In this document: piece by piece, positions 1-13,513 of the stretch
Position numbering within the stretch: the stretch's first letter is position 1
Layout of the letters: every line of letters starts with the position of its first letter
Origin: Elusimicrobiota bacterium
Lineage (GTDB): Bacteria; Elusimicrobiota; Elusimicrobia; UBA1565; JACRDR01
Assembly: GCA_041694815.1 (NCBI GenBank)
Contig: JBGFSC010000031.1
Coordinates: 1 to 24,931 of the forward strand
Length of the DNA stretch: 24,931 nucleotides
Reading direction: 5' to 3'
Translations under genes and position numbers: made by a program
Notes under the pieces: model-generated
The model's database searches: none
Seen by the model: only the letters and a program-made list of their open reading frames with translations
What the model was told of the DNA's origin: nothing

Positions 1-134
1 AGTTGATGCAGGACTGTGTTATAATGAGGCATAGGCGTCCTCCGTCGGTAGATTGCTTCCTCGCAGAAACATTCTACCAATGACGAAGGGCGCCTACGCT
101 ATTTTAACCGGACAGGAGTGGACCCAAATATCAT

Positions 135-644
135 TTGAAGCCTCCGGCCCCGCGCCAATACGAGGAGCAATGGCGGCTAAAGGCCGGGACCATCGCCCAG
201 AATGCCGCCAAGTGGGCGCTGACGCTCTCCATCCTCGCGATTCTGGCCACCCAGGCCGGCTCCGTCATTCTGGGCTTCTTGATGACCGAGCCCTCCCTCG
301 CCATGTCCACGAAGCCCGAAGACATCAACTTGATGATCAACCTTATCCACTGGCGACGCTCGCTTATGATCGTGACCGCGTTGAGCATGGCGACCGGAAC
401 CTTGATGACGATTCCCGCCGTGACGCCTCATGGGAAAAAATGGGTTCGTGAACTCGGCGCGAGAATCGGAGCTTGGTTCGGTAAATGGATGGACGCCGCC
501 GCGCATCGAAGCTACATCCGCGCCAAGAGAGCGGAATGGAAAAAGACCTTGTCGACCGCCGCCAAGCCCGTCAGCTCCGCTTCGAGCACTAACGATGGCT
601 CCGCGGAGGACGAGCCAAGCGCGGAAGAAAGGTTTAAGTTATGA
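135..644 (+). CDS. RFK-tail small membrane protein family, paralog 1. Shortest module: no signal peptide, starts at the conserved GPKYH / PPxPxQYE block. Possibly a 5'-decayed copy. TTG start in the track
   Basis: Shares with paralogs 2, 4 and 5 the motifs PAPRQYEEQWRLKAG, two hydrophobic helices, GARIGAWFGK, AHRSYIRAKRAEWKKTLS and a C-terminal SAEERFKL. The in-frame upstream peptide DRSGPKYH matches ALGPKYH of paralog 2 but is cut by a TAA at 105-107. The stop overlaps the ATG of paralog 2 (ATGA). Confidence 0.45.
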   Translation: MKPPAPRQYEEQWRLKAGTIAQNAAKWALTLSILAILATQAGSVILGFLMTEPSLAMSTKPEDINLMINLIHWRRSLMIVTALSMATGTLMTIPAVTPHGKKWVRELGARIGAWFGKWMDAAAHRSYIRAKRAEWKKTLSTAAKPVSSASSTNDGSAEDEPSAEERFKL

Positions 645-1402
645 AAGCGGGAACTAAGTTCCTGGTGGCCTTCTTATGCGCCGCCTTCGGTCTGAGTTCG
701 GCTTACAGCGAGACGGGCGCGCTGGAATGGGAGAAGATGAACTCTGGCCTGCTCTTTGAGCGCAGCGCCAGAACGGAATCCGCTGTTTCCGCGGTAGCGG
801 CGCTCGAGCTGCCATCAACGGTTATCCGACTGAACTCCGACGCACTCGGGCCAAAGTACCACATCGCGCCCCCCGAACCAAAACAATATGAAAAGTCCTG
901 GCGCTTTAAGGGAGAAAGCATAGCGGAGAAGGTGACCAAAATCGGGCTTAAAACCAGCATCGTGGGCTTTGTGGCCTCCTTGATCGCCTTTAACGTCTCA
1001 CCCGTTCTAGTGGATGCCCTCCTATACTCTAGGGATTTTTTTCAAATGCAGCTGGCGGTTACGTTAATACAATTACGGCCGATTCTGCTTCTATCAACCT
1101 GCATGGGCCTTCTAGGAGGCCTCTTTTGGGCCCTGTTCACGCTGACCCCTCCGGGCCGCGATTTTGTGAAAAGCGCAGGAGGCCGGCTCGGCGCCTGGCT
1201 TGGAAGGCGCAAGGATATCAATGCGCATAAAACTTACTTCCGGACGAAAAAAGAGGAATGGACTGAAATGCTGTCAGCTGGACGTGCAAGGCAATTGACC
1301 ACGACGGACCAGGAACTTTTACCTACCGCATCCCCGCCCTCGACAGCGAAGCCCAAGGGGAAAGCTTGGGAGTCCGCAGAGGAAAGATTCAAACTCCGAT
1401 GA
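641..1402 (+). CDS. RFK-tail small membrane protein family, paralog 2. Signal peptide, two TM helices, C-terminal ESAEERFKLR
   Basis: ATG start. N-terminal signal peptide MKAGTKFLVAFLCAAFGLSSAYS. Motifs GLLFE, PPEPKQYEKSWRFKGE, two TM segments, GGRLGAWLGRRKD, AHKTYFRTKKEEWTEMLS, acidic tail, ERFKL near the C-terminus. The stop TGA overlaps the ATG of paralog 3. Confidence 0.7.
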   Translation: MKAGTKFLVAFLCAAFGLSSAYSETGALEWEKMNSGLLFERSARTESAVSAVAALELPSTVIRLNSDALGPKYHIAPPEPKQYEKSWRFKGESIAEKVTKIGLKTSIVGFVASLIAFNVSPVLVDALLYSRDFFQMQLAVTLIQLRPILLLSTCMGLLGGLFWALFTLTPPGRDFVKSAGGRLGAWLGRRKDINAHKTYFRTKKEEWTEMLSAGRARQLTTTDQELLPTASPPSTAKPKGKAWESAEERFKLR

Positions 1403-1824
1403 ACGCTGTTTCGCATTCACCGTTCTCGTCCATCTTAATTGCTTCCACATTCTGTCCTGTAAAGCACGTTTCAGCCGAGGCTGCCCTGGAGATGCTCAAG
1501 CATGACTCCGGCATCCTTTTTGAGCAGACCACCGAACGACGGACGGACTCCCCGACCTGGAACACGCCGACGCTTTCGCTGCCTTACGTTGAAGCAGCGG
1601 CTCTGACGAACAACGTTTTCTCGAAACTACAGGGCCCGCGCCAGGACCCATCGGTCGGCTCTGCAATCGGACAGTCCTTAGGCCAAAAAAAGGACCAACG
1701 CGAATACGCTGCTTACCTAGAAGCAAAAAGACAGGAGTGGTCCCACAGCTTAACGAAACCCGCGAATTTAGAATCCCCCGATCCTGAAAGCGAGGATTCC
1801 GCCCAGGACCGGTTTAAACTTTAA
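1399..1824 (+). CDS. RFK-tail family, paralog 3. Soluble variant lacking the PPxPK/TM core but retaining the LFE box, the Y..K..EW helix and C-terminal DSAQDRFKL
   Basis: ATG at 1399 overlaps the upstream stop (ATGA). Hydrophobic N-terminus MNAVSHSPFSSILIASTFCPV. Motifs SGILFEQ, EYAAYLEAKRQEWSHSL and a C-terminal DRFKL. The track ORF begins 33 nt earlier in the same frame. Confidence 0.6.
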   Translation: MNAVSHSPFSSILIASTFCPVKHVSAEAALEMLKHDSGILFEQTTERRTDSPTWNTPTLSLPYVEAAALTNNVFSKLQGPRQDPSVGSAIGQSLGQKKDQREYAAYLEAKRQEWSHSLTKPANLESPDPESEDSAQDRFKL

Positions 1825-1826
1825 CG

Positions 1827-2426
1827 ATGCCCCGGTCCTTTTTCCTTATGTCATTATGCATCTTACCTGTGTTCAGTGAGGATGCGTCGAGTCCCGAAAA
1901 GCATAAGGCGGGATCGGGCGCGCTTTTCGGCGAGACGGTCCCTACGCCTGCGGCATCCGCCATCACTCGTGAGGAACCGAAGGTGCACCCCCTCGCCCTG
2001 GCGGCGGGGGCGGGAAACCCTGCGGGATCGGTTCCGGAACCTCCTCAACCGAAGCAATTCGAACAAGCTTGGGAGCAAAAAGGCATGCGGCGCGGTCAGC
2101 TCATCGGTTCCGCCATCTTCTTTCCGACGATATTCGGCATGCTTATATCGATGGCCGGAGCCTTTGCGACTTCAAGGGTCGAATTCGTCATAGCGATCCA
2201 ATTCCTCGCGCTGGCCTTCCTTTCCGGATTTATCCCTCTTATGATCGCTCCCTTGATCGGAAGGCGCCTGGGAAAGGCGAAGGATACCCGCGAGTACCGG
2301 CGCTATTTGGAGGAACGCCTGGCATCGTGGTCGCGGCCCCCGAAGGCCGAGGACGGCCCCAAAACCGACGGAACGCAAACGGACGGTGACGATGCCGATT
2401 CCGCCCAGGAGCGATTTAAATTTTGA
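1827..2426 (+). CDS. RFK-tail small membrane protein family, paralog 4
   Basis: Signal peptide MPRSFFLMSLCILPVFS. Motifs SPEKHKAGSGALFGE, PPQPKQFEQAWEQKG, two TM helices, GRRLGKAKDTREYRRYLEERLASW, acidic tail and C-terminal DSAQERFKF. Starts 2 nt after the paralog 3 stop. Confidence 0.7.
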   Translation: MPRSFFLMSLCILPVFSEDASSPEKHKAGSGALFGETVPTPAASAITREEPKVHPLALAAGAGNPAGSVPEPPQPKQFEQAWEQKGMRRGQLIGSAIFFPTIFGMLISMAGAFATSRVEFVIAIQFLALAFLSGFIPLMIAPLIGRRLGKAKDTREYRRYLEERLASWSRPPKAEDGPKTDGTQTDGDDADSAQERFKF

Positions 2427-3064
2427 AAATAATCTTACTGCTACTGACGATGACGTTTCGGCTCCCTTGCTTCGCCGATAGGCTCAGCCCGGAGAAGCTT
2501 AAAATGGAATCGGGCGTTCTTTTCGGCGAGAAGATATGGACGCAAGATGCCTCCGTTAAGGTGACGGCCCCACCGGCCGGCATCGCCGCTCTGGCCGCCG
2601 GACCGGATTCCCCTTCGAAAATGATCGCCGCGCCACCGCAACCGAAACGATTTGAGGAGGCCTGGAGCAAGAAAGGCGCGCGTATCGGGGACGGGATCGG
2701 CTCATGGATGGGCCTCGTCATGCTGGGCGTGTCGCTCGGAGTCACGGGGTTTGCTTTTTATATCGGCGGTCCCACGCCAGTCCTTGAAGGGAACCCGGGA
2801 GCGCCTTTCCTCACCTTAGGCTGTACTTTAATGATAAGCAGCCTGTTCTGCCTCGGCCTCGTCTCCGCGCTACTGCGATTTGCCGGAGGCGATCTTGGGA
2901 AATTATCAGGGAAGTGGAGAGACCATCAGGAGCACAAAGCTTATTTAAAAGCAAAACAGGCCGAGTGGATGCAACGCCTGAAGGAAAAACCAGAGGACAA
3001 CCCACAGGAACGCACCATAGAGGCATCGGAGTCGGACACCGCGCAAAATAGGTTTAAGTTCTAA
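2423..3064 (+). CDS. RFK-tail small membrane protein family, paralog 5. TTG start overlapping the upstream TGA
   Basis: The TTG start yields a good signal peptide MKIILLLLTMTFRLPCFA; the internal ATG would lose it. Motifs SPEKLKMESGVLFGE, PPQPKRFEEAWSKKG, two TM helices, EHKAYLKAKQAEWMQRL, acidic tail and C-terminal DTAQNRFKF. Confidence 0.65.
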   Translation: MKIILLLLTMTFRLPCFADRLSPEKLKMESGVLFGEKIWTQDASVKVTAPPAGIAALAAGPDSPSKMIAAPPQPKRFEEAWSKKGARIGDGIGSWMGLVMLGVSLGVTGFAFYIGGPTPVLEGNPGAPFLTLGCTLMISSLFCLGLVSALLRFAGGDLGKLSGKWRDHQEHKAYLKAKQAEWMQRLKEKPEDNPQERTIEASESDTAQNRFKF

Positions 3065-3751
3065 ATGAAAGCCTGGATAATCGCGTTGCTTACCAATGCC
3101 GTTCTCGCCTCCTCTTATCCTCTAGTCGACGCCGATATTACCGCCTTCGATAGAACGATTACGGAAATGGAGCGCCGCTTTAGCGGTAGGCCCAAAAATG
3201 CTCATGACAAAAAATGGGTCAAGGCCAAGTTATCGCATATGTTTAAAGTCGACCAGCATCTTCGAACATTCGCGATGGAAACGCCTTTAAAGAAATCATA
3301 TTCCGGCGAAGAAAAACGGTACTTCTGGGAGAAATTAGGGCCTCGTTGGAAAATGATCGATCATCGAAACACGACGGACTTAAAGGAGCTGCTGGCGGTC
3401 TACGGATGGATTAAGATTAGCGAATTCGGGGAGGAAGCCGACAATGCGGCCTGGCTGCTGGTCCAACACGCCGATGACGATCTCGCTTTTCAAAAAGAGA
3501 CGCTTATAAAGTTAGCGGCGCTCTATCCCGCGGGTGAAACAAAGCCATCCCACTATGCCTATCTCTACGATAGAGTGGCCATTCATGAAAATCGGCCGCA
3601 GCTATACGGCACTCAAGGGCGATGCGTCGCCGGAACTTGGGAGCCTTTCCCGATCGACAGTCCCGGGGAAGTCGATGAACGCCGCAAGGCGATGGGGCTG
3701 GAACCGCTTTTAGAATATAAGCAACGCTTTCAGGGCGCCTGCGATAGCTAG
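3065..3751 (+). CDS. Secreted hypothetical protein, last gene of the paralog operon
   Basis: ATG is immediately after the TAA of paralog 5. Signal peptide MKAWIIALLTNAVLASS. Contains blocks such as AWLLVQHADDDLAFQKE and YAYLYDRVAIHENRPQLYGTQ; I could not assign a family. Its stop overlaps the convergent mazF stop. Confidence 0.7.
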   Translation: MKAWIIALLTNAVLASSYPLVDADITAFDRTITEMERRFSGRPKNAHDKKWVKAKLSHMFKVDQHLRTFAMETPLKKSYSGEEKRYFWEKLGPRWKMIDHRNTTDLKELLAVYGWIKISEFGEEADNAAWLLVQHADDDLAFQKETLIKLAALYPAGETKPSHYAYLYDRVAIHENRPQLYGTQGRCVAGTWEPFPIDSPGEVDERRKAMGLEPLLEYKQRFQGACDS

Positions 3752-4098
3752 ACGCCGCGCGGATTCAACAACACCAGGAGCTTCTCGATGACTTCCCCTA
3801 AGATCGCCTCTGAAACCCTGCAACAAAACCGGGAATCCCTGGCTTGCCAATCCAAGCTCCTGACCTGATCGGCGAGCGCGACGCCGGAAACCCTCAAGCC
3901 CGGAGGCAATGAAACCTCAAAAGGGTAACCCTTCACCTGGCTTGTAATCGGGCAAAAGATCGCAAGTCCGACCTTTCGATTATACCCTTCGGGAGAAAGC
4001 GTCAGAGCCGGCCTATGGCCAGCCTGCTCGTGCCCCGCTTGAGAAGCAAAGGAAAGCCAAACGACATCGCCGCGTTTCGGGCAATACGGCTGCGGCAT
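3748..4098 (-). CDS. mazF: MazF/PemK-family endoribonuclease toxin
   Basis: The 116 aa product aligns along its length with E. coli MazF: GDVVWLSF..GHEQAGHRPALTLSP, GLAIFCPITSQVKGYPFEV, GVALADQVRSLDWQAR. Confidence 0.85.
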   Translation of the reverse strand: MPQPYCPKRGDVVWLSFASQAGHEQAGHRPALTLSPEGYNRKVGLAIFCPITSQVKGYPFEVSLPPGLRVSGVALADQVRSLDWQARDSRFCCRVSEAILGEVIEKLLVLLNPRGV

Positions 4099-4341
4099 TC
4101 ACCAGGTCTCTTGTCCGGCCCTGCGACCCCAATCCTGTTCGTCGTGACGATTCTTCCGGGTGACGCCTTTGAGCATTCTTGAAAGCGAGTACCTTCGTTC
4201 ACCCTTTGGTTTTACGACGATCTTTCCCTCCACGACGGCCACCTCGACCACCGTGCCCTGATGCAGGCGCACATCTTTGGCAAGCGAGCTTGGGATACGG
4301 AGGGCCAGGCTATTTCCCCATCTTTGAACGGTCGCATTCAT
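4099..4341 (-). CDS. mazE: MazE antitoxin (AbrB/SpoVT swapped-hairpin family)
   Basis: 80 aa. VQRWGNSLALRIPSSLAKDV...GKIVVKP...DWG..W mirrors E. coli MazE (VKRWGNSPAVRIP...IDWGEP..VW). Lies directly upstream of mazF on the same strand. Confidence 0.8.
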   Translation of the reverse strand: MNATVQRWGNSLALRIPSSLAKDVRLHQGTVVEVAVVEGKIVVKPKGERRYSLSRMLKGVTRKNRHDEQDWGRRAGQETW

Positions 4342-4427: not shown

Positions 4428-4853
4428 TCAACCGCCACCCTTAAGCGGCAAAGCCCTAAGTCGAACAAGCTTCCCCAAATGCTCGAATTCCGGATCCTTA
4501 TGCACCAGCGTGGCGCCTAGTCGCTCAGCGGTCGCAGCGACCCAAGCATCGGCTACGGAAAGCTTATGCCCGGCCTTTATTCGCGCGGCCGCAAGCCCTA
4601 ATGGCTCGTCGCTCTCAACGGTCTCAACGGGAAGCTGCTTGAGCTCGAGTATGCCTTGGCGAGCCGCCGTCTCGCCCTGCTCCTGCTCGAGAACATAGGC
4701 GAACTCCATGATCGACATGAAACTAATAAAGACCCGCCCGTTCTTCCCTTCTCGCCTAAGGATCAACTCCACTTCGGCGGCGCCGGGCTCGTTCTCTTTC
4801 AGGCAGAGCAAAGCCGACGTATCCAGAACGAAGGTTTCAACGGCGGGAGGCAT
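4428..4853 (-). CDS. vapC: PIN-domain ribonuclease toxin (VapC-like)
   Basis: 141 aa beginning FVLDTSALL, with acidic PIN residues spaced as in VapC. The start overlaps the upstream small antitoxin gene by 17 nt. Confidence 0.8.
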   Translation of the reverse strand: MPPAVETFVLDTSALLCLKENEPGAAEVELILRREGKNGRVFISFMSIMEFAYVLEQEQGETAARQGILELKQLPVETVESDEPLGLAAARIKAGHKLSVADAWVAATAERLGATLVHKDPEFEHLGKLVRLRALPLKGGG

Positions 4854-5061
4854 CTTCCCTACGGCTAGCCAACAAGGCCTTTGTTAAGCCCTTGGGAGCC
4901 GATCCGCGGAACGCGGAAATAGGGTCTTTGGCTACCGGGAGCACGTAGATCACCTTACCATCCTCCGCCCACTCCAGGCGCTGATGCGCCTTGAGCTTGA
5001 AGCGCTTGCGGATTCGGGCCGGTATCGCCGTCTGTCCCCGCTCGCTGAGTGTAGTCACCAT
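4837..5061 (-). CDS. vapB: AbrB/MazE/SpoVT-type antitoxin (VapB-like)
   Basis: 74 aa. SERGQTAIPARIRKRFKL is a swapped-hairpin DNA-binding N-terminus. Directly precedes and overlaps vapC. Confidence 0.7.
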   Translation of the reverse strand: MVTTLSERGQTAIPARIRKRFKLKAHQRLEWAEDGKVIYVLPVAKDPISAFRGSAPKGLTKALLASRREDASRR

Positions 5062-5153: not shown

Positions 5154-5205
5154 GCGTTTCTGCGGATTTTACTTCCAACGTTGGAAGTAAAATTAACAGA
5201 AACGC
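5154..5205. repeat. Nested AT-rich palindrome: 26-bp perfect palindrome TTTTACTTCCAACGTTGGAAGTAAAA (5167..5192) flanked by GCGTTTCTG / CAGAAACGC arms
   Basis: Read directly from the sequence. It sits in the AT-rich gap between the small ORF downstream of valS and the vapBC promoter, at the GC-content transition. Confidence 0.6.
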
Positions 5206-5207
5206 AT

Positions 5208-5378
5208 CTAGGCGCAGCGCCCGCAGCCCTGCGGCGGGCAGGAGGGACCCGGCTCAAAATCCTTAGCGCCTCCGCCTTTCTTTAATCCTGGAACCTTGTC
5301 CGAGACCTTGACCACCTTGCCGAGCTTCTTGTCGAAAACATAGGTTCCCGTCGCCTCGTCCTTCGTATTGGTCGCCAT
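5208..5378 (-). CDS. Small hypothetical protein (56 aa) with C-terminal C-x4-C-x2-C motif, coupled to the valS stop
   Basis: Not in the ORF track (under 60 aa). The minus strand reads TGA(valS stop)cGAGGTGGatATG, an SD 5 nt upstream and a 10-nt gap from valS. Translation: MATNTKDEATGTYVFDKKLGKVVKVSDKVPGLKKGGGAKDFEPGPSCPPQGCGRCA. Lys-rich host-like codon usage (AAG, GAC, GTC, CTC), unlike the R/P/G-rich frame artefacts. Confidence 0.45.
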   Translation of the reverse strand: MATNTKDEATGTYVFDKKLGKVVKVSDKVPGLKKGGGAKDFEPGPSCPPQGCGRCA

Positions 5379-5388
5379 ATCCACCTCG

Positions 5389-8220: not shown

Positions 8221-9519
8221 TCACAAAAGCTCAGACGCCAGGGCCGCCAGCGGGCTGCGCTCGATCTTGGAGAAGGTCACGTGCCCGAACAGGGGCTGGC
8301 CCTTGAAATGCTCCACCAGGTTGGTGAGCCCGTTGGAGGCGGCGTCCAGGTAATAATTGTCGATCTGATAGGGATCGCCGGTCAAGACGATCTTCGAGCC
8401 CTGCCCGACGCGCGAGATGATGGTCTTGATCTCGTGCGGCGTCAGGTTCTGGGCGTCGTCGATGATGATGTATTGGTTGGGCAGCGTGCGGCCGCGCAAA
8501 AATGTCACGGCCTCGATCTCGATCTTCTTCTGCTCGACGAGCATCTGGATGCTCATCTCGCTTTCCTCGGAATGGGGCCGGTCCATGAGAAACTCGAGGT
8601 TGTCGTAGATGGCTCCCATCCAGCTCTCGAGCTTCTCCTGCTTGGATCCGGGCAAGAACCCGATGTCGTGGCCCACCGCGATCACCGGCCGGGCGATGAG
8701 CATGCGGCGGTAGAGCTTCTCCTCGAGTATCTGCTCGAGGCCCGCGGCCAAGGCCATGAGCGTCTTGCCCGAACCGGGGACCCCGACCAAGGTGACGAGC
8801 TGCACCTCCTTGCGCATCAAAAGCTCCAGGGCGAAGCGCTGCTCGGTGTTGAGCGGCTTGATGCCCCACGGCACGGTGTCGGCCTTCGTTAACGGCACCA
8901 GGGAGCCCAGCTTCTGGTCGTAGCGGGTCAAAGCGGACTTGGAGCCGCCGTCGTTGTCCTTGAGGATCACGAATTCGTTGGGCTTAAGCCCTCCCTCGTT
9001 GACCGCCAGGCGCCGGGTCTTGTAGAAGGAGTCGATCTCGCCCGGGGGCGCGCCCACCTCCTGCCAGCCGCGGTAGAGGTCGGTCACGTCGACCTTTTCC
9101 CTCTCGTAGTCCTGCGTGTCGAGCCCGATGGCCTCGGCCTTGATGCGCAGGTTGATGTCCTTGGAGATGAAAACGATCTTGTCGCCCTCTTTCTTGAGCT
9201 GCTGCGCGACGGCGAGGATCATGTTGTCCTTGCTATGGGACAGGAAGGTCGGCGGCAGGCCGTTGCCGCTCACCATCTCGACCTTGAGAGTGCCCCCATG
9301 CTCCAGGATAACCCCGTCCGATAATTTCCCCTTGGACCTCAGGCCGTCGAGCTTGCGGGCCACCAGCCGCGCCGCGCGGCCGCGCTCGTCGTTGTTGCGC
9401 TTGAAGGTATCGAGCTCCTCGATGACGGGCAACGGCAGCACCACCTTCGAGCCCTCGAAGGCGAAGATGGCGTTGGGGTCGTGGATGACGACGTTGGTGT
9501 CGAGCACGAAGGTTTTCAC
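8221..9519 (-). CDS. PhoH-like ATPase with N-terminal PIN domain (PhoH2/YlaK type)
   Basis: GTG start preceded by GGGAGG-N5 gives MKTFVLDTNVVIHDP, a PIN N-terminus. Walker A GVPGSGKT. PhoH C-terminal block IIIDDAQNLTPHEIKTIISRVGQGSKIVLTGDPYQID. The track ORF extends 213 codons upstream into hemW as GC-frame artefact. Confidence 0.85.
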   Translation of the reverse strand: MKTFVLDTNVVIHDPNAIFAFEGSKVVLPLPVIEELDTFKRNNDERGRAARLVARKLDGLRSKGKLSDGVILEHGGTLKVEMVSGNGLPPTFLSHSKDNMILAVAQQLKKEGDKIVFISKDINLRIKAEAIGLDTQDYEREKVDVTDLYRGWQEVGAPPGEIDSFYKTRRLAVNEGGLKPNEFVILKDNDGGSKSALTRYDQKLGSLVPLTKADTVPWGIKPLNTEQRFALELLMRKEVQLVTLVGVPGSGKTLMALAAGLEQILEEKLYRRMLIARPVIAVGHDIGFLPGSKQEKLESWMGAIYDNLEFLMDRPHSEESEMSIQMLVEQKKIEIEAVTFLRGRTLPNQYIIIDDAQNLTPHEIKTIISRVGQGSKIVLTGDPYQIDNYYLDAASNGLTNLVEHFKGQPLFGHVTFSKIERSPLAALASELL

Positions 9520-9568
9520 GGTTGCCTCCCACAGCGATCGACGCAACCATTTCCTCGAATATTCTCGG

Positions 9569-10672
9569 TCATTGCACGAACTCCTCGAAGACGCGGTTGG
9601 CGAGGTAGAGCCCTTCCCCCGCGAGCTTGACGGTGTCATCCTGCTTGGCGATCCAACCCCGCCGCAAGAGCCGCGCCCATTGCGGCTCGAAGGCTTCCCA
9701 CATCTCGGGCGTGAGCGCCATCCCGTCGATCTGCCGGAGGCCGAGCAGGACGGTCTCGCCCATGCGCCGCAGGGGCGAGAGGGACTCGGACTCGAGGACG
9801 GCGCTCCGGCCCGATTCGATGGCGGCGCAATAGGCCTCCAGGCGGTCCAAGTTCTGCGTGCGCTGGCCGTCCAAATAAGAGGAGGCCCCGCACCCCAGGC
9901 CCAGGTATTCCTCGTTGCGCCAGTAGATCCGGTTGTGGATCGACTCGAAACCGGGCCTGGCGAAATTGGATATCTCGTAATGGTGGTAGCCCAGCGCCTT
10001 GAGCCGCTCGATGGAGCCCTCGAACATATCGCGCACCAGGTCTTCGTCGACCTGGAAGCCGCGCCTGGCCAGTAGTGTGCGGTCCTCGACTTGCAGGCAA
10101 TAAAGCGAGAGATGATCGCAATCGAGCGACAAGACGGACTCCAAGCTGCGCCGGGCATCCTGGGGGCTCTGCCCCGGAAGGCCGACCATAAGGTCGACGT
10201 TCACGGCGAAGCCTCGGGCCTTCGCTGCGGCGTAGACCCTACAGAAATCCTCCCAGCCGTGCCGGCGGCCCAGCGAGCGCAACAGCCGGTCATCGGCGCT
10301 CTGGAGCCCCAGGCTCAAGCGGCCGACGCCGCGACTGCGCAACACGTCCATCTTTTCCTCGCTCAAGCTCTCGGGATTGGCCTCGAAGGTCGATTCGAGA
10401 AAGCCCTCGACGGGGCCGAAGAGCTCCTCGACGCTGCACAAGAGCTCGTCCATCTCTTCAGCCGAGAGTTCGCTCGGCGTGCCCCCGCCCACATAGAGCG
10501 TGTCCACCGGCCTATGGCGCGAGCGCGATTCCGCCGCCAGCGCCCGGAGGTAGCGCCCCGTCCGGTTCCGCTGCCCCGCGAAAGCCGTGAAATCGCAATA
10601 GAAGCACTTGATGGAGCAAAACGGGACGTGGATGTAGAGTCCTCGCAGACCCACGTCGCGGGGCGCGCTCAA
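9569..10672 (-). CDS. hemW: Radical SAM heme chaperone HemW (HemN-like, oxygen-independent coproporphyrinogen oxidase family)
   Basis: [17 protein letters not shown] carries the CxxxCxxC radical SAM motif in the HemW context. GGGTPS. C-terminal HemN_C-like domain. TTG at 10672 overlaps the SPFH stop (TTGA). An alternative GTG at 10654 gives [13 protein letters not shown]. Confidence 0.8.
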
Positions 10673-11558: not shown

Positions 11559-11567
11559 TGGTATAAT
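11559..11567 (+). promoter_or_regulatory. Extended -10 element TGGTATAAT upstream of ispG; no consensus -35
   Basis: TGnTATAAT lies 9 nt before the ispG ATG at 11576, implying a very short or leaderless 5' end. The same element type precedes the dehydrogenase operon. Confidence 0.35.
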
Positions 11568-11575
11568 TGTTTTTT

Positions 11576-13513
11576 ATGCCAACCGAAACCCTCCCATCGA
11601 CGGCCCCGCCGGCCTACTGCTCCGACCCCTTCGGCTACGCCCGGCGCAAAACCCGCGTCGTCCGCGTCGGCAAGGTGCCCGTCGGCGGGAACAACCCCAT
11701 TCGCGTCCAGTCGATGACGACGACCGATACCCTCGACGTCGAGGCGACCGTGGCCCAAACCCTGAAAATGGTGGAGGCCGGCTGCGAAATCGTCCGGATC
11801 ACCGCGCCCACGGTGGGCGACGCGCGGGCGCTCGGCAAGATCAAGGAGCGGCTACTGCGCTTGGGCTGCGACGTTCCGCTCGTCGCCGACATCCATTTCT
11901 CCCCCCAGGCCGCGATGGAAGCCGCCGAGTACGTCGAGAAGGTCCGCATCAACCCCGGCAATTTCGTCGATTCCAAGCGCTTCGCGGTCAAGGAGTACAG
12001 CGACGAGCAGTACGCCGAGGAACTCTCCCGCATCGAGGCGGCCTTCACCCCCCTCGTGGAGAAGCTCAAGCGCCTGGGCCGCGCCCTGAGGATCGGCACC
12101 AACCACGGCTCGCTCTCCGACCGCATCATGAACCGCTACGGCGACACCCCCCTGGGGATGGTCGAGTCGGCCTTGGAGTACGTGCGCATCTGCGAGAAGA
12201 ACGGCTACCGGGACATCATCCTCTCGATGAAGGCCTCCAACCCCAAGGTGATGGTCGCGGCCTACCGCCTGCTCGCCGCGCGGATGGAGGAGCTCGGCAT
12301 GGATTATCCCTTCCATCTGGGCGTGACCGAGGCGGGCGACGGGGAGGACGGGCGGATTAAATCCGCCATCGGCATCGGCAGTCTGCTCGCAGACGGGATC
12401 GGGGATACCATACGGGTTTCGCTGACCGAGGACCCGGAATACGAAATCCCCGTTTGTTATGCTCTCGCCCGGCCGTTCCAACCCACGTCTTTGAGGCAAG
12501 TCACGCGCCCAAAGCGCGTAAATACCCTCCCATACGATCCGTTTTATTATGAGCGCCGTAAGAGCCGTCCCGTGTCCATCGGCCCCTTCCCCGCCGGTGA
12601 CGCGCAGCTCGTGCGCGTCGTCACGGCGTTCAAGGAGAATCCCTCCGCCGAACAGATACTCGCCTTCTTGGAGGAGCAGCTCCGCGCCGCCAAAAACCTC
12701 GAGCCCGAGATCATCGAGTGGCGGGTCCGCGGGGGTTCGGATCTCGAAGCCCTCTCGGCGCTGCGCGCACGGCTGCGCGCCGAAACATCCCGGCTCGCCT
12801 TCGCCGCCCGTTTCGAGCCGCCCGCCCAGCCGCTCGCGCGGGGCGATTTCGACGCGTTGATCCTGGAGGCGCCATCGGCCGAGGAGTTGATGTCCCTGCG
12901 CGCGCGGATGGAGCCGGAAACGCCCGTCCTGCTTTCGCTGCGGGGCGAGGACGCCGGCGCGCTGCTCAAGGAATACAGGCTCCTGGCCTCCAGGCTCAAG
13001 GCCGCCGGCTCCAAGGAGCTCATCCTTTTGCGGGCTCCGGTCCAGGCGGAGGAGCAAGAGCAGGTGCTGGCCTCCTCGGTGCTCATCGGCAGCCTGTTGT
13101 GCGACGGCATCGGCGACTGCGTGCAGGTGGACTCCGCCCTTAAGCCGGCGCGCAACCTGGAGCTCGTCTACAACATACTGCAGGCCGCCGGCGTGCGCGT
13201 CACGAAGACCGAGTTCGTTTCCTGCCCCTCCTGCGGGCGAACCCTGTTCAACCTGCAGACCACCACCGAGCGGATCAAATCGAAGACGGGGCACTTAAAG
13301 GGCGTCAAGATCGCCATCATGGGATGCATCGTCAACGGCCCCGGCGAGATGGCCGACGCCGATTTCGGCTATGTCGGGGGCGCCCCGGACAAGATCAATC
13401 TCTACGTTGGCAAGGAATGCGTGCGCAAGGGTATCCCCGCCGCCGTCGCCGACGAGGCCCTCATCGAGCTCATCAAGTCCCACGGCAAGTGGGTAGAGCC
13501 GCCCTCCGCGTAG
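11576..13513 (+). CDS. ispG: 4-hydroxy-3-methylbut-2-enyl diphosphate synthase IspG/GcpE, long form with central insert domain
   Basis: N-terminal TIM-barrel block VGKVPVGGNNPIRVQSMTTTDT...NPGNF. C-terminal 4Fe-4S block FVSCPSCGRTLFNLQ...IMGCIVNGPGE. About 270 extra residues between them. The track start is a TTG 9 nt upstream. Confidence 0.9.
   Translation: MPTETLPSTAPPAYCSDPFGYARRKTRVVRVGKVPVGGNNPIRVQSMTTTDTLDVEATVAQTLKMVEAGCEIVRITAPTVGDARALGKIKERLLRLGCDVPLVADIHFSPQAAMEAAEYVEKVRINPGNFVDSKRFAVKEYSDEQYAEELSRIEAAFTPLVEKLKRLGRALRIGTNHGSLSDRIMNRYGDTPLGMVESALEYVRICEKNGYRDIILSMKASNPKVMVAAYRLLAARMEELGMDYPFHLGVTEAGDGEDGRIKSAIGIGSLLADGIGDTIRVSLTEDPEYEIPVCYALARPFQPTSLRQVTRPKRVNTLPYDPFYYERRKSRPVSIGPFPAGDAQLVRVVTAFKENPSAEQILAFLEEQLRAAKNLEPEIIEWRVRGGSDLEALSALRARLRAETSRLAFAARFEPPAQPLARGDFDALILEAPSAEELMSLRARMEPETPVLLSLRGEDAGALLKEYRLLASRLKAAGSKELILLRAPVQAEEQEQVLASSVLIGSLLCDGIGDCVQVDSALKPARNLELVYNILQAAGVRVTKTEFVSCPSCGRTLFNLQTTTERIKSKTGHLKGVKIAIMGCIVNGPGEMADADFGYVGGAPDKINLYVGKECVRKGIPAAVADEALIELIKSHGKWVEPPSA

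Follow-up and report, generated by a model that had tools for sequence, protein, structure and literature searches.

A rare tandem array of small hairpin proteins with a predicted envelope role in an Elusimicrobiota bacterium

Introduction

Glycine-zipper two-helix envelope proteins such as SlyB/Pcp and YfgH (PF05433, PF13488) are small exported lipoproteins of the outer membrane in which a hairpin with GxxxG zippers enters the membrane from the periplasmic side and is joined to soluble parts. Other small membrane proteins are encoded in tandem, as in the fast-diverging, island-borne arrays of immunity genes known from colicins and from type VI (T6SS) and type VII secretion systems (T7SS), in which the variation lies in the helices and truncated copies occur. 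Chlamydial Inc proteins, which are type III secretion substrates of the low-GC Chlamydiae and have no Sec signal peptide, place two adjacent hydrophobic helices with a short loop between helical flanks on the same side, and their many diverged paralogs are often adjacent. Here we analyse P1–P5, a tandem array of five homologous genes on the + strand of a 24,931-nt stretch of DNA (hereafter the window) from an uncultivated Elusimicrobiota bacterium (GenBank assembly GCA_041694815.1, contig JBGFSC010000031.1, positions 1–24,931). Together with a sixth, unrelated gene, P6, the five are closely packed at 108–3751. They encode a real, undescribed and extremely rare protein family, for which we infer an envelope role as scaffold or adaptor.

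By architecture, the nearest kind of described protein is the glycine-zipper two-helix envelope protein. Like SlyB-like lipoproteins, the P1–P5 family has a zipper-bearing two-helix hairpin in its AlphaFold2 model, and it would likewise enter the membrane from the periplasm and carry soluble parts there. However, its helices are much more hydrophobic, its zippers sit at the helix ends instead of running throughout, and it adds an N-terminal motif, a PP box, an RRKD helix, an invariant C-terminus and a diverging tandem array. When 12 members were searched with hmmscan, the only match to a glycine-zipper Pfam family was that of P0008 to PF13488 (E 0.25; 11.7 bits, where the cut-off is 25). No lipobox was found by eye in the complete members, whose signal-peptide core Cys never has Gly, Ala or Ser at −1; they have sites like those of signal peptidase I (SPase I) instead. 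The array shares with immunity arrays its tandem, fast-diverging and island-borne character, the variation in helices and the truncated copies, but no cognate toxin or secretion genes were found in the window, there is no sequence relation, and the conserved ends are foreign to immunity families. Unlike Inc proteins, which it resembles in its hairpin and adjacent paralogs, the family has a Sec-type signal in every complete member, a host of ~65% GC and no sequence relation to them. We thus rate P1–P5 as a new family at the sequence level and, overall, as a variant of exported helical-hairpin envelope proteins in the form of a recombining island-borne array.

Homology and distribution of the family

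The original prediction described five tandem, strongly diverged paralogs on the + strand, and our searches bear this out. In BLASTP with the database size set to 1e8, P1–P2, P4–P5 and P2–P5 matched at E values of 4e-24, 3e-20 and 1e-9, and P3 matched the other copies at 4e-4 to 0.05; identity between the paralogs is 28–35%. A family profile searched against the six-frame translation of the window found exactly P1–P5 (E 1e-41 to 1e-74) and no further copy at E < 1.

Relatives elsewhere are few. A HMMER scan of 1.84 billion cluster representatives gave 13 matching proteins, and the relatives were confined to four other NCBI contigs. Seven of them are full-length (195–226 aa, E 5e-36 to 2e-11) and show the same order of parts as the complete window copies. 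Five relatives (P0006, P0008, P0009, P0011 and P0014) lie on one 7,276-nt contig, which therefore holds a second array, and the three remaining contigs, of 24,934, 27,059 and 25,683 nt, hold one known member each (P0010, P0012 and P0013, respectively). Among ~15 billion sequences the window proteins are singletons at 90% identity. Word-indexed protein searches, which are limited by a candidate pre-filter, recovered only the window proteins with the five-copy alignment and only P2, P0012, P0006 and P0014 with a 12-sequence alignment of the five window copies and the seven full-length relatives; the relatives themselves came from the full HMMER scan. One further match, P0015 (761 aa, E 3e-5), was rejected as a relative, its similarity being confined to four repeated stretches that match the low-complexity linker. 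At the DNA level, a hand-made degenerate pattern for motif 3 (described below) matched three window copies and, in the genome contig collection, three chance sites only, with unrelated translations. Neither this pattern nor one with variable gaps that ends in the C-terminal codons had a match in the metagenome and viral collections, and a tblastn search with P5 found no match in the plasmid and phage collections.

The profile search that had been suggested as a check on the prediction thus yielded relatives on four other contigs and no known family. Pfam, NCBIfam, PADLOC, PHROGs and PDB sequences gave no significant match for the family, and structure searches against PDB folds and the viral predicted structures of BFVD gave none either, in agreement with the earlier statement that no characterised family could be recognised. 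A phage holin or spanin was considered and rejected: the best PHROGs match, P0010 to an Rz-like spanin, has an E value of 0.017, and the window contains no phage genes. A known anti-phage defence system was also rejected, with no PADLOC family matching any of 10 proteins at E ≤ 1. These results add a protein family that is absent from current libraries. Orphan families of membrane proteins are frequent among metagenome-assembled genomes, and the finding touches no long-standing open question, so we consider its importance moderate until a function or a partner comes to light.

Architecture and predicted structure

Complete members share one order of parts. A segment resembling a Sec-type signal peptide is followed by LExxKxxSGxLF (motif 1), a disordered linker, the PPxPK box (PP box) and a two-helix hydrophobic hairpin; after the hairpin come the helix GRRKD..E..AYL.AK..EW (motif 3), an acidic tail and the C-terminus RF[KR][LF]. 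Around the PP box the family consensus reads PPxPxxxE...KG and continues with GxxIGxxIG before the hydrophobic helices. The linker is of low complexity, made up of Ala, Pro, Ser and Thr, and holds a small ALT-like motif, and Thr/Ser, Asp/Glu and Lys abound in the tails. All motifs quoted in the original prediction are present on the multiple alignment, and four conserved motifs with an invariant free C-terminus provide a signature for the family. The prediction had further assigned one modular architecture and a cleavable signal peptide to every copy. This fits the complete copies, which have signal-like N-termini, but not P1, whose 5′ part is missing and which is without signal peptide; the common architecture also fails for P3, which is without PP box and helices.

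The N-termini of the complete members, judged by eye, bear the marks of a Sec/SPase I signal. All ten show a positively charged n-region and a hydrophobic core, with small residues at −3/−1, and Asp, Glu, Gly or Ser stands directly after each putative cleavage site, as in AYS↓E, VFS↓E, CFA↓D and SLA↓E. An acidic stretch comes next in nine of the ten. Export of the family is accordingly a prediction from these features. In P5 (2423–3064), our reference copy, the signal-peptide-like segment MKIILLLLTMTFRLPCFA lies at 2423–2476 on the + strand, with CFA↓D as the likely SPase I site. A Cys lies within the hydrophobic core in nine of the ten complete members (FLCAAF, SLCILP, LPCFA, LFCIGS and IICGLA among others), the exception being P0012; in P5 it is encoded within 2465–2470, and a canonical lipobox is absent.

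The remaining parts of P5 follow on the same strand. Motif 1, SPEKLKMESGVLFGE, occupies 2486–2530 (consensus LExxKxxSGxLF), and its region is covered by the DNA repeat D3 (1890–1959 and 2486–2555). The PP box, PPQPKRFEEAWSKKG, at 2633–2677 forms the start of helix 1. The hydrophobic hairpin is encoded at 2693–2875 (residues 91–151); GxxxGxxxG marks its entry, and its loop is uncharged. Motif 3, GGDLGKLSGKWRDHQEHKAYLKAKQAEW, lies at 2885–2968 (consensus GGxIGxxLGRRKDxxExxAYLxAKxxEW).

Prediction of a single copy, which had also been proposed as a check, supports this arrangement. The AlphaFold2 model of P5, made with the 12-sequence alignment, is one long helical hairpin with helices at residues 76–115 and 127–187, which include the two hydrophobic helices. 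The block means of the predicted local distance difference test (pLDDT) are 80–92 in the helices and 63–72 over the loop (residues 111–130); the model also shows disorder at residues 37–65 and a flexible tail. Two uncharged stretches of 18–30 aa with a short loop between them occur in every hairpin-bearing member, and the helices are strongly hydrophobic, with Kyte–Doolittle window means of ~1.9–2.7. GxxxGxxxG occurs in 12/12 sequences; it follows helix 2 in 11 of the 12 and precedes helix 1 in 7 of the 11 hairpin-bearing members.

Membrane topology and possible function

We tentatively propose that P1–P5 are undescribed, very narrowly distributed small envelope hairpin proteins that share a C-terminal docking peptide, a reading to which we give somewhat less than an even chance. 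The signal peptide would carry the N-terminus across the inner membrane, and the hairpin would then anchor the protein in a membrane that it enters from the periplasmic side. Helix 1 would comprise the PP-box helix, a GxxxGxxxG zipper and the first hydrophobic helix; after a short uncharged loop, helix 2 would consist of the second hydrophobic helix, GxxxGxxxG-RRKD and the amphipathic helix, and would lead into the flexible acidic tail. In this arrangement both the motif 1 end and the RF[K/R][L/F] tail would remain periplasmic, where the conserved ends could contact partners common to all paralogs. The acidic tail with its free C-terminus of the type aromatic-x-hydrophobic may dock to a peptide-binding domain, for example of the PDZ type. 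The docking-peptide look of this C-terminus is based on PDZ class II ligands and on the YxF signal of outer-membrane proteins that is read by DegS. The variable linker and hairpin would give each copy its individuality, and the proteins would act as membrane-anchored adaptors or scaffolds.

Several observations weigh against this proposal. The strongest concerns charge: summed over 11 members, Lys and Arg within 20 residues on either side of the hairpin number 49 and 62, and the loops contain 9. The positive-inside rule would place the hairpin flanks in the cytoplasm, which a cleaved signal peptide does not allow. A surface or envelope location, as originally suggested, is therefore plausible, but the hairpin charge argues against both termini lying outside together with a cleaved signal. 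Moreover, no PDZ protein is encoded in the window, and no partner for the C-terminal peptide was found there. With two defective copies among its five, the array may also be partly in decay. Finally, P6, a DUF6624 gene, gives no help in naming a conserved partner, as two DUF6624 homologs elsewhere have neighbours without any relation to P1–P5, and no close DUF6624 protein was found on the other family contigs among the best 120 of at least 518 matches. A clear export signal that occurs together with cationic hairpin flanks poses an unusual topology problem and leaves open an inverted topology, entry into a different membrane from outside (as a SlyB-like outer-membrane hairpin or as a toxin) and an immunity array as rivals of the docking proposal.

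An inverted topology would accord with the positive-inside rule. The flanks, the C-terminal helix and the tail would then be cytoplasmic, the C-terminal region serving, for example, as an IF1-like inhibitory helix or as a recognition tag, and the N-terminal segment would not be a conventional cleaved signal. Consistent with this are the charge distribution itself, the conserved GRRKD directly after helix 2 and the intact open reading frame (ORF) of P1 in spite of its missing signal peptide. The family segment GxxxGrrkD..e..aYl.ak.ae...L (2885–3020 in P5) also aligns with residues 16–59 of IF1, the ATPase inhibitor of mitochondria, but the match is not significant (E 0.04, 16.6 bits in a small database) and involves one charged, compositionally biased helix. 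Homology to IF1, a soluble matrix protein without signal and hairpin, was rejected, the likeness being probably compositional. Against cytoplasmic flanks stands the signature of an N-in export signal in all ten complete members, with its acidic stretch in nine. Furthermore, there is no hydrophobic segment between signal and hairpin that could return the chain to the cytoplasm. Taken together, we judge an inverted topology to be quite unlikely.

Cationic flanks would also be expected if the proteins were themselves membrane-damaging, that is, bacteriocin- or effector-like glycine-zipper pore formers that insert from outside with their flanks on the cis side. The signal peptide, the hydrophobic hairpin with its GxxxGxxxG zippers, the rapid diversification and the location on an accessory island would all suit such a toxin. 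However, helices this hydrophobic would be expected to stay in the inner membrane of the producer itself as Sec exports the chain, which argues against a toxin. In addition, no immunity or export gene is evident, structure searches returned no pore-forming toxin at E < 1, and P3 has no hairpin. We therefore regard pore formers as decidedly improbable.

The conserved C-terminal peptide

All 12 aligned sequences end in [ST]A[EQD]xRF[KR][LF]. In P5 the C-terminal peptide DTAQNRFKF and the stop codon are encoded at 3035–3064 on the + strand, within the repeat families D1/D2, and the equivalent DNA of the other copies lies at 620–645, 1370–1402, 1795–1824 and 2397–2426. The window copies end in RFK[LF], and the seven relatives on other contigs end in RF[KR]L. 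The C-terminus was said to be invariant, and RFK[LF] is indeed found in all five copies, with the qualification that P2 adds one Arg after it.

The last nine codons are alike at the DNA level in all five copies, and the conservation is limited to those codons. Since members on other contigs keep the same ending, selection on the C-terminal peptide is likely. We considered whether the conserved 3′ ends could be Shine–Dalgarno sites for the following genes and rejected this, because the AGGA-like elements are inconsistent and lie 13–22 nt from the next starts, and because the three contigs with a sole member keep the ending too. More broadly, overall identity between contigs is only 23–30%, yet members share the motifs and the exact C-terminus (profile E 1e-11 to 1e-19). 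The C-terminal peptide and motif 1 offer experimental handles on partner proteins.

Incomplete copies and module exchange

P1 is cut off at its 5′ end. Its homology to the family begins at nt 108, right after an in-frame TAA at 105–107, and at this start it reads GPKYHL-KPPAPRQYEE against GPKYHI-APPEPKQYEK in P2. From here on it runs through PP box and hairpin, C-terminal helix and acidic tail to the ending ...EERFKL (profile positions 66–216), and as translated from the TTG at 135 it is without signal peptide and N-terminal motif. The 107 nt before the homology contain nothing that resembles any module of the family. An insertion or repeat, at which the assembly broke too, may have cut off the 5′ end of P1. 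P3, by comparison, comprises profile positions 4–76 and 156–216 only: its signal-peptide-like N-terminus, SGILFEQ and the linker run straight into the C-terminal helix, acidic tail and DRFKL. Neither PP box nor hairpin is present, no hydrophobic segment was seen in P3 in their place, and the pattern indicates that both were lost through an internal deletion.

A third kind of rearrangement is apparent from P0006 on the 7,276-nt contig. P2 and P0006 are 78% identical over residues 1–94 and 91% identical over the first 60 alignment columns, whereas from the PP box onward their identity is 35–37%, no closer than that of any paralog pair. Because the two are near-identical before the box and unlike each other after it, modules have been exchanged at the PP box, which marks the breakpoint in P2/P0006. 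The start of P1 coincides exactly with the same module boundary. The original prediction had suggested old duplications under diversifying pressure; the sequences document birth-and-death evolution, in which copies are duplicated, truncated or internally deleted, together with module exchange at the PP box. The module exchange and the second array suggest a fast-evolving envelope or conflict function in this uncultivated bacterium.

Going further, one may picture a modular envelope system of a single uncultivated lineage, in which cassettes for the N-terminal motif and export, for the hairpin and for docking are reshuffled at the PP box, with P1- and P3-like copies as donors. Variable specificity modules, for example against toxins or phages, would thereby be set on one periplasmic partner through RFK[L/F]. 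We consider this extension of the docking proposal unlikely.

The mosaic would also suit an immunity array, in which each copy would neutralise a different membrane-inserting toxin, such as a glycine-zipper or pore-forming one, with the hairpin conferring specificity and the ends localisation. In favour of this, diverged tandem copies lie on an island of foreign composition beside toxin–antitoxin modules, truncated and deleted copies and module exchange are features of conflict systems, and the hairpin or mid-module is the most variable part of the protein, with identities of 14–47%. A paper on a T7SS LXG effector describes membrane damage, and the term 'glycine zipper' occurs 37 times in it (PMC12955049). 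However, the toxin and secretion genes missing from the window, the lack of PADLOC or PHROGs matches, and the single members on three other contigs speak against an immunity array, and an invariant free C-terminal peptide is not a mark of known immunity families. We thus hold immunity to be an unlikely function, albeit one with some weight.

The incomplete copies could also mean that the array is evolutionary debris: duplicates in decay on a mobile island that do not function, none of them under selection for a role in this window. The truncation of P1, the deletion in P3 and the very narrow distribution would fit, as would the shortened deposited annotation of P3, P4 and P5. Yet five reading frames have stayed open, the motifs and the exact C-terminus are maintained between contigs in spite of the low overall identity, and the GC content at third codon positions (GC3) exceeds that at second positions (GC2) in each of P1–P5, as coding sequence should show. 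Debris is accordingly a very improbable account of the array.

Gene layout and reading frames

The six genes lie on the + strand as follows. P1 has its ORF at 135–644 (169 aa, TTG start; NCBI model P0002), with homology from 108. P2 (641–1402, 253 aa) is complete and the longest copy, with motif 3 at 1178–1261. P3 (1399–1824) encodes 141 aa from its ATG and has motif 3 at 1657–1740; an alternative TTG start at 1366 would lengthen it to 152 aa and add a positively charged n-region. P4 (1827–2426, 199 aa) and P5 (213 aa, TTG start) are complete copies, and P6 (3065–3751, 228 aa) is a DUF6624 protein with a signal-peptide-like N-terminus.

The ORFs and the overlapping or abutting junctions are as originally given. 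Stop and start codons overlap as ATGA at P1/P2 (641–644) and at P2/P3 (1399–1402) and as TTGA at P4/P5 (2423–2426). P3 and P4 are separated by a 2-nt spacer (TAA-cg-ATG, 1822–1829), and the TAA of P5 abuts the ATG of P6 (3062–3067). Cotranslation had been called almost certain. The packing is tight enough for it, and translational coupling of P1–P6 is suggested by this spacing alone. An extended −10-like element, TGTTATAAT, was read from the sequence at the contig start (17–25, + strand) and is a possible operon promoter, for which any −35 element would fall off the contig; it was not reported by a promoter scan that required both hexamers.

Three of the five deposited gene models start too late, and corrected models are provided here. 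The models of P3 (110 aa), P4 (113 aa, P0003) and P5 (186 aa, P0001) begin at internal Met codons and leave out the signal peptide and conserved motifs; P0003 in particular lacks SPEK motif and PP box along with its signal peptide. Because these starts lie downstream of motifs that the relatives on other contigs keep, the longer ORFs are the correct ones, and the annotation of the family is systematically too short.

The DUF6624 gene P6

P6 is not paralogous to P1–P5. It matches PF20329 (DUF6624) with an E value of 4.4e-19 and 69.1 bits against a gathering cut-off of 27. Its N-terminus is hydrophobic, and a pair of Cys residues is nearly invariant. Its model (pLDDT 95) shows a helical domain with a small beta-hairpin, for which the structure search found no specific solved relative. 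About 20 polar or aromatic residues are invariant, among them D63, Q64, R67, W115, W130, Q134, H135, D137, D169 and R170. From the model and these residues, P6 looks like an uncharacterised exported enzyme or binding protein. Its homologs, which number at least 518 and all carry the same Pfam domain, are widespread, and some are labelled Bdellovibrio, Pseudobdellovibrionaceae, Elusimicrobia or Deltaproteobacteria by their source. In one case, a JGI/ENA metagenome contig (L004, 6664–8303), three small genes of 163, 176 and 172 aa lie downstream of a DUF6624 homolog; none has a Pfam match, two have signal-peptide-like N-termini, and all are unrelated to the P1–P5 family.

DUF6624 is reported to co-occur often with several groups of graspetide gene clusters and has been proposed as a possible biosynthetic enzyme in them (PMC13097080). 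P1–P5 might on this basis be substrates or precursors that P6 processes or modifies, in the manner of a RiPP system (for peptides made on the ribosome and modified after translation) with several diverged precursors and a tailoring protein. P6 abuts P5 in the same operon, its many invariant polar residues would suit an enzyme, and the Thr/Ser-, Asp/Glu- and Lys-rich tails would suit substrates. However, there is no ATP-grasp or other RiPP enzyme in the 24.9-kb window, although its contig ends 134 nt upstream of P1, and ~200-aa proteins that carry both a signal peptide and membrane helices do not resemble RiPP precursors. By form, an identification of the family members as RiPP precursors was rejected, as they have 141–253 aa with signal peptide and hydrophobic hairpin. 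The unrelated neighbours of DUF6624 homologs and the missing close DUF6624 proteins on family contigs, both given above, tell against a RiPP-like system as well, which we hold to be highly improbable. For these two reasons the linkage of P6 with the array may be incidental, and P6 is probably not a conserved partner of the family.

The island and neighbouring genes

The first 5.1 kb of the window consist of P1–P6 and two type II toxin–antitoxin pairs on the − strand. A MazF/PemK toxin gene (3748–4098), recognised by a library match, overlaps the P6 stop by 4 nt at its 3′ end and is paired with a MazE antitoxin gene (4099–4341). The second pair comprises a PIN/VapC-like toxin (4428–4853, library match) and its AbrB/MazE-type antitoxin (4837–5061). 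GC3 is 0.58–0.77 for P1–P6 and the toxin–antitoxin genes and 0.85–0.88 for the ValRS, IspG, LigA, PurH, RibBA and SPFH genes. This lower GC3 identifies the first 5.1 kb as a compositionally foreign island in a housekeeping chromosomal contig, and the ~65% GC host genome carries ordinary housekeeping genes. The toxin–antitoxin pairs are treated here as neighbours of the array.

Searches of this DNA gave no tRNA genes and no Rfam matches. A 42-nt palindrome (5159–5200; 21-nt arms, 86% complementary, no spacer) lies near the island edge between the antitoxin and ValRS genes, and a 58-aa ORF without a Pfam match follows it at 5208–5384 (− strand). Further into the window, a PhoH-like ATPase with an N-terminal PIN_4 domain is encoded at 8221–10158 (− strand), and the first ~200 codons of its listed ORF are probably noncoding. 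A long form of IspG/GcpE with 648 aa is encoded at 11567–13513 (+ strand), and its Pfam match falls in two stretches.

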